Part shown: positions 3,260-43,987 of the stretch, one piece after another
Numbering within the stretch: the stretch's first letter is position 1
Layout of the letters: every line of letters begins with the position of its first letter
Source of the DNA: Alphaproteobacteria bacterium
Lineage (GTDB): Bacteria; Pseudomonadota; Alphaproteobacteria; CAAGCB01; CAG-977
NCBI GenBank assembly: GCA_024407875.1
Contig: JAKSVT010000001.1
Location: 117,091 to 181,090, forward strand
DNA length: 64,000 bases
Reading direction: 5' to 3'
The notes under the pieces: model-generated
What the model was told of the DNA's origin: nothing
The model's input: only the letters and a program-made list of their open reading frames with translations
Databases searched by the model: none
Made by a program: the position numbers and the translations under genes

Positions 3260-4540
3260 ATGCTTGCTCAGGAAATTATTAAGAAAAAAAGAGATGGTGA
3301 AAATTTAACCGCTAAAGAAATTAAAACTTTTGTTCAAGGTGTTTTAGATTGGTCTGTCTCTGATGGTCAGCTATCAGCTTTGTTGATGGCTTTCTTAATT
3401 AATGGAATGAGCCATGAAGAACTTCAAAACTGGATAAGTGAAATTATAGATTCAGGTATGGTTCTTGATTGGGATAGTGTTGATTTAAATGGGCCTGTGG
3501 CATCAATTCATACAATGCCTTCTGTTGGTGATAAATCAGAGATTATTGTTGGAGCTGTTTTAGCAAGTGCAGGAATGTATGTTCCTATGCTCTGTGATAA
3601 AATGCAATATCATACAGGAGGCACAATTGATAAATTAAGTTCTATTAGTGGTTATGATATTAATCCTTCAAAAGCAAGATTTCGTAAAACTTTACTAAAT
3701 TCAGGTTTTGCTTTTTTGACTTCATCAGAACAGTTAGCTCCTGCTGATGTTAGAATTCAATCTATTCGTGATACAACAGCAACAATTTCTAGTATTGATT
3801 TGTTAATAGCTTCATTATTAATTAAAAAAGTTGCTAGTGGTGTTAAAAAATTGACTGTAGATATTAAAACAGGTTCAGCAAGTTTTACAACAACAGAAGA
3901 ATATGCAAAAGAATTTGAAGAAAAATTATTATTAAATGCTGCTCCATTTGGACTTGATGTAAAAACTATTTTCTCGAATGTTAATGAAGTTGTCGGCCAA
4001 AATATTGGCAACTCCTTAGAAATTTATGAAGTCTGGGCTTTTTTAACAGGTGCTTTGGGCAATAGGGATAAACAATTGATGAAGCAGACAAAAACTATTG
4101 CTAGTGTTGCTTTAGTTCAAAATGGTATTTGTTCAAATGAAGAAAATGCAAAGCAACTAGTTGAAGATTTAATTACTTCAGGTAAAGCTGCAGAACAATT
4201 TTCTAGAATGCTTTATGAAATGGGAGTTTCTCAAGCGTTTATGTCAAATCCTATGACGTATTTGCCACAAGCGCCAGTTGTTTTACCTGTATATGCGGGA
4301 AAAACAGGTATAGTTGAAACTATGAATATGAGATGGATAGGTTTGTCTGTTATTGAAATGGGTGCTGGTCGTTTATATAGCGAACAAAAAATAGATTTGT
4401 CAGCAGGTTATTCTAATATGATTAAACCAGGAACTAAAGTAATGCCAGACACAGTACTAGCCTTTATTCATGCTCAAGATGAACAAACAGCTCTAGCAGC
4501 ACAAACTCATTTGCTGGGTGCTATAAATATTAACGGTTAA
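3260..4540 (+). CDS. thymidine phosphorylase paralog with diverged phosphate-binding loop
   Basis: It shares the TP fold and N-terminal helical domain with deoA (MLAQEIIKKKRDGENLTAKEIKTFVQGVLDWSVSDGQLSALLMAF). HSTGGVGDK is replaced by HTMPSVGDK and SGxGLxHTGGT by CDKMQYHTGGT. The likely start is ATG 3260. Confidence 0.7.
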   Translation: MLAQEIIKKKRDGENLTAKEIKTFVQGVLDWSVSDGQLSALLMAFLINGMSHEELQNWISEIIDSGMVLDWDSVDLNGPVASIHTMPSVGDKSEIIVGAVLASAGMYVPMLCDKMQYHTGGTIDKLSSISGYDINPSKARFRKTLLNSGFAFLTSSEQLAPADVRIQSIRDTTATISSIDLLIASLLIKKVASGVKKLTVDIKTGSASFTTTEEYAKEFEEKLLLNAAPFGLDVKTIFSNVNEVVGQNIGNSLEIYEVWAFLTGALGNRDKQLMKQTKTIASVALVQNGICSNEENAKQLVEDLITSGKAAEQFSRMLYEMGVSQAFMSNPMTYLPQAPVVLPVYAGKTGIVETMNMRWIGLSVIEMGAGRLYSEQKIDLSAGYSNMIKPGTKVMPDTVLAFIHAQDEQTALAAQTHLLGAINING

Positions 4541-39829: not shown

Positions 39830-40522
39830 ATGGTTGAAGAAATCAATAATATTGAAAAAATATATGAAGTCAAAAATTGGGTTTTTGACTTAGATGATAC
39901 ATTGTATCCCCCAAATAAAACATTAAATAATGAAATGGGCGAAAGAATTTCTAATTACATTATGAAAGTTGCTCATGTTGATAAAGAAAGAGCTGATTTT
40001 ATGAAAAAGGATTTTTATCAACGATATGGGGCTACTGTATGGGGGCTGATGAATGAGTATGAAGTTGATCCTGTAGATTTTACAGAAGACATTCATAAGT
40101 TAGATTTATCTGTTTTAAAAAAGGATCCTGAATTAAGAAAAGCAATAGAGTTATTACCAGGTAAAAAATATGTTTTTACAAATGGGGCTTATCAACATGC
40201 AACAGGAGTTATAAAACAAGTAGGATTAGAAGGATTATTTGAAGGAATATTTTCTATTAGAGAAGCGGAATATATTCCAAAGCCAGCACAAGAAACTTTT
40301 ATGAAAATGTTTGATTATTTTGATTTAATTGGCGAAGAGTGTTTAATGTTTGATGATAATCAAAAAAACATTCTTGGGGCAAAAAAGGCTGGAATGAAAA
40401 CTGTTTGGATTTCTTCAAATGTAGATAACAATAAATATTGTATGTCTGAAGAAGCTGATTTTTGCGATTTCCAAGCATTTAATTGTACGGAATTTATAAA
40501 TAAAATTAAGCATGTTCTTTAA
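39830..40522 (+). CDS. HAD-superfamily pyrimidine 5'-nucleotidase-like hydrolase
   Basis: DLDDTLY motif I, and motifs FTNG and MFDDN in 230 aa. Confidence 0.65.
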   Translation: MVEEINNIEKIYEVKNWVFDLDDTLYPPNKTLNNEMGERISNYIMKVAHVDKERADFMKKDFYQRYGATVWGLMNEYEVDPVDFTEDIHKLDLSVLKKDPELRKAIELLPGKKYVFTNGAYQHATGVIKQVGLEGLFEGIFSIREAEYIPKPAQETFMKMFDYFDLIGEECLMFDDNQKNILGAKKAGMKTVWISSNVDNNKYCMSEEADFCDFQAFNCTEFINKIKHVL

Positions 40523-40533
40523 GGAAATGCACT

Positions 40534-41094
40534 ATGACAAAGTTTGACCATTTAGCTGTATTTTGTGGCTCAAGATTAGGTAATGATTCTATATTTAAAG
40601 AAACGGCTTTAGAACTTGGAAAAGAATTGGCAAAAAATAATGTTGCTTTGACTTATGGGGCAGGCCATACAGGAATTATGGGGACTATTGCCAAATCATG
40701 TTTGGATAATGGTGGTAAAGTATATGGCCATATAAATGATTTGTTAAATAATGCAGAACCTATATTGTTTGACATGACAGATATAAGGGTTTATGGCTCA
40801 TTGCATGAAAGAAAAGATGCAATGTTTAAGGAAGCGGATGCTTTTTGTGCAATGCCTGGTGGTATAGGAACATTAGATGAGCTTTTTGAAATAGTTACTC
40901 TTCGTCAAATTAATGAAATAAATAAACCAATAATTGTATGTAATATAAATGGCTTTTGGACACCATTTAAAGAAATGATTGATACATTAATTAAAACAGG
41001 TTTTGCTGATGAAAGTAATGCTCGGTTAGTTACTTATGTTGATAATGTGAAAGATGTTATACCAACTATAAGAAAAGAACTAGGTTTGATGTAG
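40534..41094 (+). CDS. LOG-family protein (nucleotide 5'-monophosphate nucleosidase/cytokinin riboside-phosphate phosphoribohydrolase family)
   Basis: PGGIGTLDELFE motif and YGAGHTGIMG in 186 aa. Confidence 0.75.
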   Translation: MTKFDHLAVFCGSRLGNDSIFKETALELGKELAKNNVALTYGAGHTGIMGTIAKSCLDNGGKVYGHINDLLNNAEPILFDMTDIRVYGSLHERKDAMFKEADAFCAMPGGIGTLDELFEIVTLRQINEINKPIIVCNINGFWTPFKEMIDTLIKTGFADESNARLVTYVDNVKDVIPTIRKELGLM

Positions 41095-41177
41095 AAAATA
41101 AAGATTTATCAAATGTGTTTTGTTTAATTTGCTATAAGCTTTATTAAAGGTGTTCGGTTGTAAAAAATATTATTAAA

Positions 41178-41215
41178 TCCGACAAAATGTAGTTTGCTAC
41201 AAAAACTCGGAATTG
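41178..41215. repeat. palindromic repeat copy A (tccgacaaaatgtagtttgctacaaaaactcggaattg)
   Basis: One of three near-identical ~37-bp copies. Outer arms are aattccga / tcggaatt and inner arms are tgtag / ctaca. Confidence 0.8.
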
Positions 41216-41250
41216 ACATATTAAAAATAAAGAATTATTATTATAATAAG

Positions 41251-41288
41251 TACGACAAAATGTAGTTTGCTACAAAAATTCGGAATTG
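41251..41288. repeat. palindromic repeat copy B
   Basis: tacgacaaaatgtagtttgctacaaaaattcggaattg, 10 bp upstream of the ATPase start. Confidence 0.8.
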
Positions 41289-41298
41289 GAAAAAATAA

Positions 41299-42558
41299 AT
41301 GCTTATAGAAAGACCATATTATTTAAATAAATTAATTAGAAACAAACACAATAAATTGATTAAAATTGTGACCGGCATTCGGCGTTGTGGCAAATCTTTT
41401 TTGTTAAATACAATATTTTATAATCACTTAATACTATGTGGCGTCGAAAAAAATCATATTCTTTCTTATTCATTAGATGAATTAGAAAATATAAATTTGT
41501 TAGATCCAATTCGTTTGCTTCAAGAGATTAAAAATAAATTGGTGGATGAAGAAATGTATTACATTATTTTAGATGAAATACAGATGGTTCCTCAGTTCGA
41601 AAAATTATTAACTTCATTAAATCATATAGCAAACACAGATGTTTACGTTACGGGAAGTAATTCAAAATTTTTATCAAGTGATATTATTACAGAATTTCGC
41701 GGACGAGGAGATGAAATTAGGGTTCATCCATTGTCTTTTTCGGAATATTATTCTGCTGTTCAGGGAGATTTGAATAAAGCATGGTTTGAATATTACACTT
41801 ATGGAGGAATGCCTTTATTAATTAATAAAAAAGAATATGAAGATAAATCAAGCTATTTAAAATCTATTTATGAAAAAGTGTATAAAACAGATATTCTAAA
41901 TCGTTTTAAAATTAAAGACAAAGAAGAGTTGTTTCAAATTTTACAAGTTTTATCTTCTAGTGTAGGTTCATTGACTAATTCTTTAAATTTAGCTAAAGCT
42001 TTTAAACATTTTCATAATCACTGTATAACAGATAAAACAATTTCAAAATATATTTCATATTTGGAAGATGCTTTTTTAATTTCGGATGCTCAACGATATA
42101 ATATCAAAGGAAAAAAGTATATTAGGGCAACTAAAAAATTTTATTTTGAAGATGTTGGAATTAGAAATGCGATGTTAAATTTTCGTCAAAACGAAGAAAA
42201 TCATTTGATGGAGAATATTATTTATAATGAGTTGAAAATACAAGGTTTTAATGTTGATGTAGGGGTTGTTGAAAAGGTTGAAACAACTAAAGATAAGAAA
42301 AAGGTAAGAAAAAAATTTGAAATTGATTTTGTAGCTTCAAAAGCTGATGATTGTTATTATATTCAATCTGCATTGCATTTGAATACACCTGAAAAATATG
42401 AACAAGAGTTGAAGTCATTGCTGAATATTCCTGATCATTTTAAGAAGATAGTCATTGTTAAAGACTATATGCCTCCAACAAAAAATCCAGATGGAATAAC
42501 AATTATTGGAATTACAAATTTCTTGTTGAAAAGTCTTTTTAATTCCGAAAAAATGTAG
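41299..42558 (+). CDS. AAA+ ATPase with C-terminal DUF4143 (COG1373 family)
   Basis: Walker A GIRRCGKSFLL, Walker B IILDEIQ, and a C-terminal EIDFV...YYIQ region typical of DUF4143. The last 5 codons lie inside repeat copy C. Confidence 0.7.
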   Translation: MLIERPYYLNKLIRNKHNKLIKIVTGIRRCGKSFLLNTIFYNHLILCGVEKNHILSYSLDELENINLLDPIRLLQEIKNKLVDEEMYYIILDEIQMVPQFEKLLTSLNHIANTDVYVTGSNSKFLSSDIITEFRGRGDEIRVHPLSFSEYYSAVQGDLNKAWFEYYTYGGMPLLINKKEYEDKSSYLKSIYEKVYKTDILNRFKIKDKEELFQILQVLSSSVGSLTNSLNLAKAFKHFHNHCITDKTISKYISYLEDAFLISDAQRYNIKGKKYIRATKKFYFEDVGIRNAMLNFRQNEENHLMENIIYNELKIQGFNVDVGVVEKVETTKDKKKVRKKFEIDFVASKADDCYYIQSALHLNTPEKYEQELKSLLNIPDHFKKIVIVKDYMPPTKNPDGITIIGITNFLLKSLFNSEKM

Positions 42559-42580
42559 TTTGCTACAAAATTTCGGAATA
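42541..42580. repeat. palindromic repeat copy C
   Basis: aattccgaaaaaatgtagtttgctacaaaatttcggaata. It overlaps the stop of the ATPase gene. Confidence 0.8.
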
Positions 42581-42639
42581 ATAATGTGGTATATTAAAAA
42601 AAGTTCATTAAAATCTTTCAATGAATACTGCGTAAATGC

Positions 42640-42900
42640 TCATTTTTTTATATTCCGAACAGTATCAATTTCAGAATTGATTTCTTCTAAGGTCATATCG
42701 GTTATGCTATTTTGTTTAGCTAGTTGACGCATTTGATAAAAAGTATTCATTGATTTTGTTATCGTATCGTTAGCACTAATTTAAAAAGGTGTTCTTCTTT
42801 CACAAACAACAGCTTTAGCAAAAATATTAAATGCTGTAGATAATGAAAAGCCAAATTCATGACAAAGTTGCTCAAAATTTTGCTTTAATTGTTCATCCAT
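42640..42900 (-). pseudogene. DinJ/RelB-family type II antitoxin with in-frame TAA stop (pseudogene or truncated)
   Basis: Minus-strand translation MDEQLKQNFEQLCHEFGFSLSTAFNIFAKAVVCERRTPF*ISANDTITKSMNTFYQMRQLAKQ... aligns with DinJ (IDEDLKNQAADVLAGMGLTISDLVRITLTKVAREKALPFDL). The TAA at 42781-42783 interrupts the frame. The ORF track missed it because of the stop. Confidence 0.6.
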
Positions 42901-43110
42901 TCGAATGCTAAAAGTTGATTGAGCTATTTATAACATATGAACATAAATGTAACTATAATGGTATTATATGTTAAAATATATTGTTCGAAAAACTATATAT
43001 TTTTTTGACTTATGAAAGTTTCTAATCGAATTAAATCAAGAAGTTTATCAAAGTGAAGATTTGACTAATATTTAATTTACATTAGCATAAAAATACGACA
43101 CGAAGACCAA

Positions 43111-43150
43111 TAAAAAAAAGCCCCGGCATTACCGGGGTTTCCTTTTCGTT
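43111..43150 (-). terminator. rho-independent terminator downstream of tRNA (minus strand)
   Basis: Stem ccccgg, loop catta, stem ccgggg. An A8 run on the plus strand (a T-run on minus) follows the hairpin on the minus strand. Confidence 0.6.
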
Positions 43151-43191
43151 GATCAAGAACAAAACTTCAAAAGCCAAGTTCTTGATTTTAT

Positions 43192-43267
43192 TGGTAGCGG
43201 GTGAGGGATTTGAACCCACGACACAAGGATTATGATTCCTCCGCTCTACCAACTGAGCTAACCCGCC
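43192..43267 (-). tRNA. tRNA with CAU anticodon (elongator Met or lysidine-Ile)
   Basis: Minus-strand sequence GGCGGGTTAGCTCAGTTGGTAGAGCGGAGGAATCATAATCCTTGTGTCGTGGGTTCAAATCCC...ACCCGCTACCA. It has a D-loop AGCTCAGTTGGTAGAGC, an anticodon loop ATCATAA, a T-loop GGTTCAAATCC and an encoded CCA. Confidence 0.8.
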
Positions 43268-43327
43268 ATCAAGACAAGCACTCTTTTATATGCTTTTTTT
43301 TAGTATGTCAATATATTTTTGTAAAAT

Positions 43328-43987
43328 TTATTCTTCTTTTTGATTAATTTGTTTTTCTAAAGCTTTTACTTGGGCTTTTAATTTTTCAATAGCGTCAATA
43401 ATAGGATCTGTTTTTTCTGCTGCGTAAGCTTCAAATTCTTTTACTTCAGCATTCTTTTTAGCTTTAATTATTTGTGCTGGAACACCAACAGCTGTTGCGT
43501 TATTAGGTACAGCTTTTAAAACTACGGCGTTTGATCCGACTCTTGCATCATCTCCAATTGTTATAGGGCCTAATATTTTTGCGCCAGTTCCGACAATTAC
43601 TCTGTTTCCAAGAGTAGGGTGGCGTTTGCCTTTTTGAGTTGTTGTACCACCAAGTGTCACTCCATGGTATAGAGTGCAATCATCTCCAATTACACTTGTT
43701 TCACCAATAACTAATCCTGTAGCATGGTCGATGAACAATCTTTTCCCAATTACAGCAGCAGGATGAATGTCAACGCCAGTAATAAAGCGAGCTATAGTTG
43801 ATAGGAGCCTTGCTATTGTTGTTAATTTCTTTTCCCATAAAAAGTGTGCGACTCTATAGATCATAATTGCGTGTACGCCAGGATAACACAGTAAAACTTC
43901 AATTTTTGATCTAGCAGCAGGGTCCCTTACTACAACAGAATTAATATCTTCAGATAAATCTTTAAATAATTTTATTAGTTTTGACAT
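43328..43987 (-). CDS. cysE: serine O-acetyltransferase
   Basis: Left-handed beta-helix hexapeptide repeats (DIHPAAVIGKRLFIDHATGLVIGETSVIGDDCTLYHGVTLGG). It has an unusual ~45-aa coiled-coil C-terminal extension. Confidence 0.8.
   Translation of the reverse strand: MSKLIKLFKDLSEDINSVVVRDPAARSKIEVLLCYPGVHAIMIYRVAHFLWEKKLTTIARLLSTIARFITGVDIHPAAVIGKRLFIDHATGLVIGETSVIGDDCTLYHGVTLGGTTTQKGKRHPTLGNRVIVGTGAKILGPITIGDDARVGSNAVVLKAVPNNATAVGVPAQIIKAKKNAEVKEFEAYAAEKTDPIIDAIEKLKAQVKALEKQINQKEE

Follow-up and report, generated by a model that had tools for sequence, protein, structure and literature searches.

The 64,000-nt window (the whole stretch of DNA analysed here) carries on its minus strand what are very probably the remains of a type II toxin-antitoxin operon, lying between a convergent ATPase gene and a tRNA-Met gene (Table 1). 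The original prediction had described a decayed locus of this type in which a RelB/DinJ-family antitoxin, interrupted by a single in-frame TAA, overlapped by ATGA with an 11-codon toxin stub. All of these elements are present in the sequence. The antitoxin frame runs from 42900 to 42640 as predicted, with the TAA at 42783-42781, and the stub ORF at 42643-42608 reads MSIYAVFIERF followed by a stop and shares the ATGA with the antitoxin stop. The family assignment was borne out by matches to PF04221 and TIGR02384 above their cut-offs.

Table 1. Features of the relic locus and its surroundings (positions in the window)
Feature	Position	Strand	Remarks
AAA_14/DUF4143 ATPase gene	41299..42558	+	Intact, convergent with the relic; PADLOC candidate defence family PDC-S01
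Third copy of 36-nt palindromic repeat	42544..42579	.	46 nt past the breakpoint; overlaps the ATPase stop codon
FIERF-stop, tail of the stub ORF	42608..42625	-	Unrelated flanking DNA; breakpoint 42625/42626
PIN_3 (VapC-like) toxin remnant, codons 1-6 (MSIYAV)	42626..42643	-	ATG overlaps the antitoxin stop as ATGA; 18 nt identical to the L170 toxin
RelB/DinJ-family (ribbon-helix-helix) antitoxin pseudogene	42640..42927	-	95 codons and TGA stop; PF04221, TIGR02384, collinear with homologues
In-frame nonsense codon TAA, codon 49	42781..42783	-	GAA (Glu) in the intact paralogue
Lost start codon, ATA for ATG	42925..42927	-	ATG in all 80 full-length homologues and the intact paralogue
Junction of 23-nt deletion	42928..42931	-	Intact copy has ATAATTATAAAAAAGGAGAAAAA, holding an AAGGAG Shine-Dalgarno site
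Upstream remnant: 8-nt inverted repeat (42931-42938, 42966-42973) and weak promoter-like site TTAACA-17-TACATT	42931..42974	-	
tRNA-Met gene	43192..43267	-	Terminator 43121-43137, upstream of the relic

The antitoxin frame had been drawn from an ATG at 42900, but it begins nine codons further upstream. It is open through these codons (IAQSTFSIR) to an ATA at 42927-42925, which is itself preceded by an in-frame TAA. With the nine codons included, the score against Pfam RelB rose from 31.1 to 38.1 bits (PF04221 cut-off: 22.4; E 1.5e-9), and the frame with two lesions mended (the repaired frame) scored 52.5 bits with the NCBIfam model TIGR02384 RelB_DinJ (cut-off: 45.65). Judged by these profiles, the RelB signal of the repaired frame is far above what would be expected by chance.

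Among 5.8 billion proteins searched, 88 homologues were found, mostly 96-101 aa long, with E-values down to 3.6e-28 and, for most of them, 55-61% identity to the repaired frame. All except seven partial matches covered 91-100% of that frame, the part after the TAA included. The alignment spans the beta-strand TFSIRMD, both helices up to PFE and then the C-terminal part; the repaired frame thereby has the predicted architecture of RelB/DinJ antitoxins, an N-terminal ribbon-helix-helix domain with its beta-strand and a C-terminal toxin-binding extension. Among 15 homologues aligned in full, all but one divergent member start with MAQ(A/S)TFSIRMDE, and Glu is the usual residue behind the PF motif. 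Position 1 is Met in each of the 80 homologues of 90-106 aa. The relic retains 40 of the 46 columns that are conserved in at least 90% of homologues and deviates at M1, D19, M27, R42, I46 and A62. The proposed collinearity with E. coli DinJ was not recovered: DinJ itself gave no match to the relic antitoxin, and the solved DinJ structure 9lew_A matched residues 5-53 only (E 1.6e-5).

The locus had been described as missed by ORF calling, which is at odds with the public record. NCBI lists the 39-aa ORF at 42781-42900 in GCA_024500545.1 as MCQ2913713.1, a 'type II toxin-antitoxin system RelB/DinJ family antitoxin'. No entry exists for the 36-aa ORF that follows the TAA, and four further small ORFs at the locus are absent from the protein collection. 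A literature search on the assembly and run accessions found no paper.

An intact paralogue of the antitoxin (95 aa; MCQ2914796.1, P0097) is encoded on a 37-kb contig of GCA_024500545.1, four accession numbers from a VirB4-like ATPase. It surfaced only through an exact-sequence cluster look-up of the small ORFs. The homologue search missed it in spite of 86% identity, which may be explained by the fact that its 90% cluster, shared with MCQ2913713.1, is represented by that 39-aa fragment. The same protein is encoded on Logan contig L170, from another sample (28% GC), where the RelB gene overlaps by ATGA with a downstream gene for a 139-aa PIN_3 toxin that begins MSIYAVIDTN (MSIYAVIDTNVLVSAFL), and type IV secretion genes come next. 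The exact sequence of this toxin is not in NCBI, and the complete pair with this RelB protein was seen on L170 alone. The intact copy (L170 798-4037; MCQ2914790-MCQ2914796) adjoins a VirB4/TrbE-like ATPase gene and small VirB-like genes, which suggests that the pair is an addiction module of a conjugative element or plasmid. The interval from the VirB4-like gene to RelB comprises three accessions in GCA_024500545.1 and two genes in L170.

Over 285 nt, relic and intact paralogue have 24 differences, of which 11 are synonymous, 12 non-synonymous and one nonsense. This corresponds to 92% DNA and 86% protein identity, with a dS of 0.23 and a dN/dS of 0.24. By this measure the two are not a recent duplication, and the relic would be a diverged second copy. 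The part after the TAA has a mean identity of 41% to the homologues, compared with 34±14% for intact pairs at equal N-terminal divergence. These values suggest that purifying selection acted over most of the separate history of the relic and that its inactivation was fairly recent. Given the dN/dS of 0.24 and the normal conservation after the TAA, decay would thus be recent relative to the split of the two copies.

Comparison with the intact paralogue exposes three disabling lesions in the antitoxin. The nonsense codon had been ascribed to a GAA to TAA change, and the paralogue does carry GAA at this position. The lost start codon and the 23-nt deletion, which removed the Shine-Dalgarno site, had escaped notice, as had the nine upstream codons; in homologous loci, AAGGAGG lies 6-9 nt upstream of the ATG. 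In the DNA alignment with L170, substitutions are also found at two conserved positions, CGT to TGT (R42C) and ATA to ACA (I46T). A Logan assembly, L008, likewise reads the ATA and the 23-nt deletion, and it may derive from the same reads as the metagenome-assembled genome (MAG). It ends at 42895, short of the TAA, which is thus known from one assembly alone. TAA ends 37 of the 46 long ORFs in the window, and since it is the usual stop in this genome, recoding or read-through at codon 49 is unlikely. For an operon to function, its antitoxin ORF has to be uninterrupted and to possess both a start codon and a ribosome-binding site, and the toxin gene directly downstream has to be intact. Here the ATA, the 23-nt deletion and the TAA disable the antitoxin, and of the toxin only codons 1-6 are left.

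The stub had been read as the beginning of a RelE/YafQ-family toxin. We compared 87 homologous loci, seven from the contigs of the nearest homologues and 80 from a metagenome scan. In the former contigs, the antitoxin is followed by a 136-137-aa PIN_3 protein (PF13470), which also passes TIGR00305 ('toxin component, PIN family'). Overall, 84 of the 87 loci have PIN_3 sequence (PF13470 or TIGR00305) downstream, full-length and in one frame in 63 of them, and none has a RelE-like gene. The partner PIN_3 toxins begin M-x-x-YAVIDTNVLVSALLS, and many share the ATGA overlap with the antitoxin stop. The first 18 nt of the stub are identical to the start of the 139-aa L170 toxin gene, MSIYAVIDTNVLV..., and the two sequences are unrelated from the next base on. 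Six of the eleven codons are therefore toxin, as had been proposed for all of them, and FIERF-stop is flanking DNA. Scored with a profile of the first six columns of the partner toxins, MSIYAV ranks first among 127,966 six-frame positions of the window (17.5 bits; next best: 11.6). The remnant stops one codon before I-D-T-N, so the first catalytic residue of PIN domains, in (I/V)DTN, is lacking. We assign the presumed ancestral toxin to PIN_3 solely through the 18-nt identity with the PF13470-bearing toxin of L170.

Searches by tblastn, hmmsearch and block-wise profile scans detected no toxin remnants past codon 6, beyond the ATPase gene or elsewhere in the window. The string DFNELFLIY was considered as a frameshifted form of the motif DTNVLV (rank 2747) and as the C-terminal motif NEFLDIL (rank 525), and was rejected in both roles. 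In about 13 of the 87 loci (L089, L100, L105, L106, L109, L112, L124, L145, L147, L151, L153, L165 and L168), a truncated or frameshifted PIN_3 sequence stands beside an intact antitoxin despite enough downstream sequence. Toxin decay appears to be recurrent in the homologous RelB-PIN_3 family, with the reservation that some of these cases may be assembly errors.

The end of the toxin remnant coincides with a breakpoint. The toxin body had been proposed to be deleted at the edge of a segment with the ATPase gene and a palindromic repeat, and this agrees with the homology ends of two contigs. The toxin-antitoxin homology of L170 ends at 42626. Contig L169, from a strain in another sample (SRR25429151) that is 97-99% identical in the flanking DNA, matches the window from a LOG-family gene through the ATPase 3' end to the palindromic repeat (L169 1-1301 versus window 40490-42625). 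Past 42625, L169 carries sequence that is absent from the whole 64 kb, and it ends 274 nt beyond the junction. Because the homologies of L170 and L169 abut, a single rearrangement would have joined toxin codon 6 to the ATPase-flanking DNA; most simply, this was a deletion in the lineage of the window. L169 also lacks window positions 41217-42310, a 1.1-kb deletion at an AATTGA microhomology which leaves only the last 84 codons of the ATPase gene. Together, this deletion and the breakpoint indicate that the small tRNA-adjacent segment is structurally unstable between strains. A search for the orthologous site among GTDB species representatives with CysE as query gave a best identity of 58%, and all matches were from gamma- and betaproteobacteria.

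The ATPase matches the PADLOC PDC-S01 profile PDLC04787 over its full length (residues 2-411; E 4.8e-113) and is on this basis a candidate defence protein. Three copies of the 36-nt palindrome flank its gene, with no others in the window; the predicted hairpin has a free energy of -15 kcal/mol and a z-score of -4 to -6. In three unrelated loci, spaced repeats whose sequences differ by locus lie just upstream of the ATPase start. In the window (41163-41286 and 42529-42579), two copies of the palindrome are upstream of the gene and the third overlaps its stop codon. L005 carries four repeats of about 32 nt (1295-1417) and L153 two of 39 nt (3745-3866), all upstream. Such repeats could be operator-like or iteron-like sites. 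Homologues of the ATPase (43-52% identity) occur within 4 kb of the RelB-PIN_3 pair in five of the 87 loci (L005, L153, L157, L160 and L161), which could be chance for genes of defence islands. In four of these five the ATPase gene is downstream and convergent, as in the window.

An Rfam scan detected the tRNA only. Just past cysE, the window encodes a 2022-aa autotransporter-domain protein (MCQ2913715.1; 44137-50205, plus strand). This protein, the GC content of about 29% and the type IV secretion genes suggest a host-associated alphaproteobacterium.

The inverted repeat TAACATAT/ATATGTTA upstream of the antitoxin exists, as reported, and had been proposed as the former operator. Perfect 8-nt inverted repeats with a loop of up to 40 nt occur 2.8 times per kb of the window, and about 11% of 60-nt stretches contain one. 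The repeat is thus at chance frequency, and the operator reading, though conceivable, gains no statistical support. Two positions of the proximal arm are different in L170, the weak promoter-like site overlaps its distal arm, and the upstream region of the relic is about 80% identical to the 28 nt available upstream in L170. Many homologous operons have a palindrome, AACCTAWTAGGTT, in their upstream region; no match to it lies near the relic, and the window contains fewer matches than shuffled sequence does. In the form (G/A)CACCTAATAGGTT(C), the palindrome is found once or twice around the -35 region, within the upstream 100 nt, in many of the loci L091-L164, and is absent from the closest homologues (L003 and L004) and from the window. 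It is likely the operator of the antitoxin subfamily to which the relic belongs, and we regard it as a candidate for that role.

Taken together, we consider it very probable that the locus is a non-functional relic of an operon of a RelB/DinJ-family ribbon-helix-helix (RHH) antitoxin and a PIN_3 (VapC-like) ribonuclease toxin, and that a second copy of the module is intact elsewhere. In the intact module, the RHH antitoxin would neutralize the PIN_3 nuclease and probably repress the operon, as in other RHH-PIN systems. The rearrangement that ends at 42625/42626 removed toxin codons 7-139. The toxin was presumably lost first, or together with antitoxin function, because loss of the antitoxin alone with an active toxin would be lethal. 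With the toxin gone, nothing would have maintained the antitoxin, and AT-biased mutation pressure in a genome of about 29% GC may then have eroded it.

Other readings of the locus have to be set against this one. That it is a decayed dinJ-yafQ or relBE operon, in which an mRNA interferase of the RelE/YafQ family left its N-terminus as the stub, is suggested by the family of the antitoxin, and short hydrophobic N-termini that read M..Y.V.F bear a loose resemblance to RelE. The stub, however, reads M-S-I-Y-A-V-F and does not fit the motif M-x-Y-x-V-x-F that had been put forward for it. The survey of the 87 loci speaks against this reading, and the identity of the first 18 nt of the stub with the PIN_3 gene of the intact paralogue has already refuted it; we leave it practically no probability. 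The lesions might also be errors of sequencing or assembly, so that the living cell would hold an intact, orphan antitoxin. The source is a MAG, the TAA comes from the assembly alone, and a paralogue with 92% DNA identity could cause mis-recruitment of reads. Yet errors would have to account for all three independent disabling lesions, two of which recur in L008, and the 24 sites that differ between relic and paralogue are scattered over the gene, a pattern to be expected of a genuine second copy. The toxin is absent either way, and we find an artefact hardly credible.

Some residual function is conceivable, either of a short RHH peptide (48 aa from the ATA or 39 aa from the internal ATG) or of retained promoter/operator DNA that would still bind the antitoxin of the paralogue or compete with it. 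In favour are the NCBI annotation of the 39-aa ORF as a gene, the partial conservation of the upstream region between relic and intact copy, and a dN/dS below 1. The 39-aa product, however, lacks FSIR, the beta-strand with which RHH proteins read DNA, the Shine-Dalgarno site is gone, the conserved R42 and I46 are replaced, and a dN/dS below 1 is to be expected had the copies diverged mostly before inactivation. We therefore hold residual function to be very improbable. A wider scenario would make the relic and the PDC-S01-type ATPase gene the scar of an older integration at tRNA-Met by a conjugative (type IV secretion) element of the kind that carries the intact RelB-PIN_3 pair, with surviving promoter/operator DNA that still binds the intact antitoxin and so couples the two loci. 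We regard the scenario as unlikely. A search of positions 40500-43400 for a tRNA-derived attachment-site duplication detected no repeat pairing the tRNA gene with a site near the relic or the ATPase gene.

The decayed RelB-PIN_3 operon calls for two corrections of the record: MCQ2913713.1 should become a pseudogene feature spanning 42626-42927, and the toxin type is to be given as PIN_3 instead of RelE/YafQ. Relevance beyond annotation is small. The locus offers a base-resolved example of the death of a toxin-antitoxin module in an AT-rich reduced genome, in which deletion of the toxin would have been followed by loss of the antitoxin start, ribosome-binding site and frame, with both an intact paralogue and a strain-level breakpoint at hand for comparison. 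It also cautions that the antitoxin family alone is a poor guide to the type of toxin.

Pairing of an RHH antitoxin with a PIN toxin is common. RelB/MetJ/Arc-like (RHH) domains make up 29% of the PIN-associated antitoxin domains, and PIN_3 proteins are typical toxins of toxin-antitoxin systems (PMC5499597). With the RHH-PIN (VapBC-type) modules that combine a RelB/DinJ antitoxin and PIN_3, the locus shares the order antitoxin-toxin, the ATGA overlap, the N-terminal RHH and C-terminal toxin-binding parts of the antitoxin and the toxin start M-x-x-YAVIDTN, of which the intact copy preserves the whole; that copy adjoins conjugation genes, as addiction modules often do. The relic differs from them in being dead, with a TAA at codon 49, only six toxin codons and neither start codon, Shine-Dalgarno site nor catalytic residues. 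E. coli DinJ-YafQ and RelBE have an antitoxin of the same Pfam and NCBIfam family, whose RHH domain ends in a PF(E) motif. The C-terminal half of the relic antitoxin, however, has no detectable similarity to DinJ, and its partner is a PIN-domain nuclease, which differs in fold and mechanism from the ribosome-dependent RelE/YafQ interferases.

Toxin-truncated variants of toxin-antitoxin systems are found on mobile elements, for example Tn5501.5 (PMC7157771). The locus resembles these and other decayed toxin-antitoxin loci, as in reduced or host-associated genomes, in that the toxin was truncated by deletion and a recognizable antitoxin was left. In contrast to examples such as Tn5501.5, the antitoxin is inactivated here too, and the genome has an annotated intact paralogue. 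We conclude that this AT-rich alphaproteobacterial MAG has an ordinary decayed RelB-PIN_3 module at the locus, a new dead member of a well-known kind.
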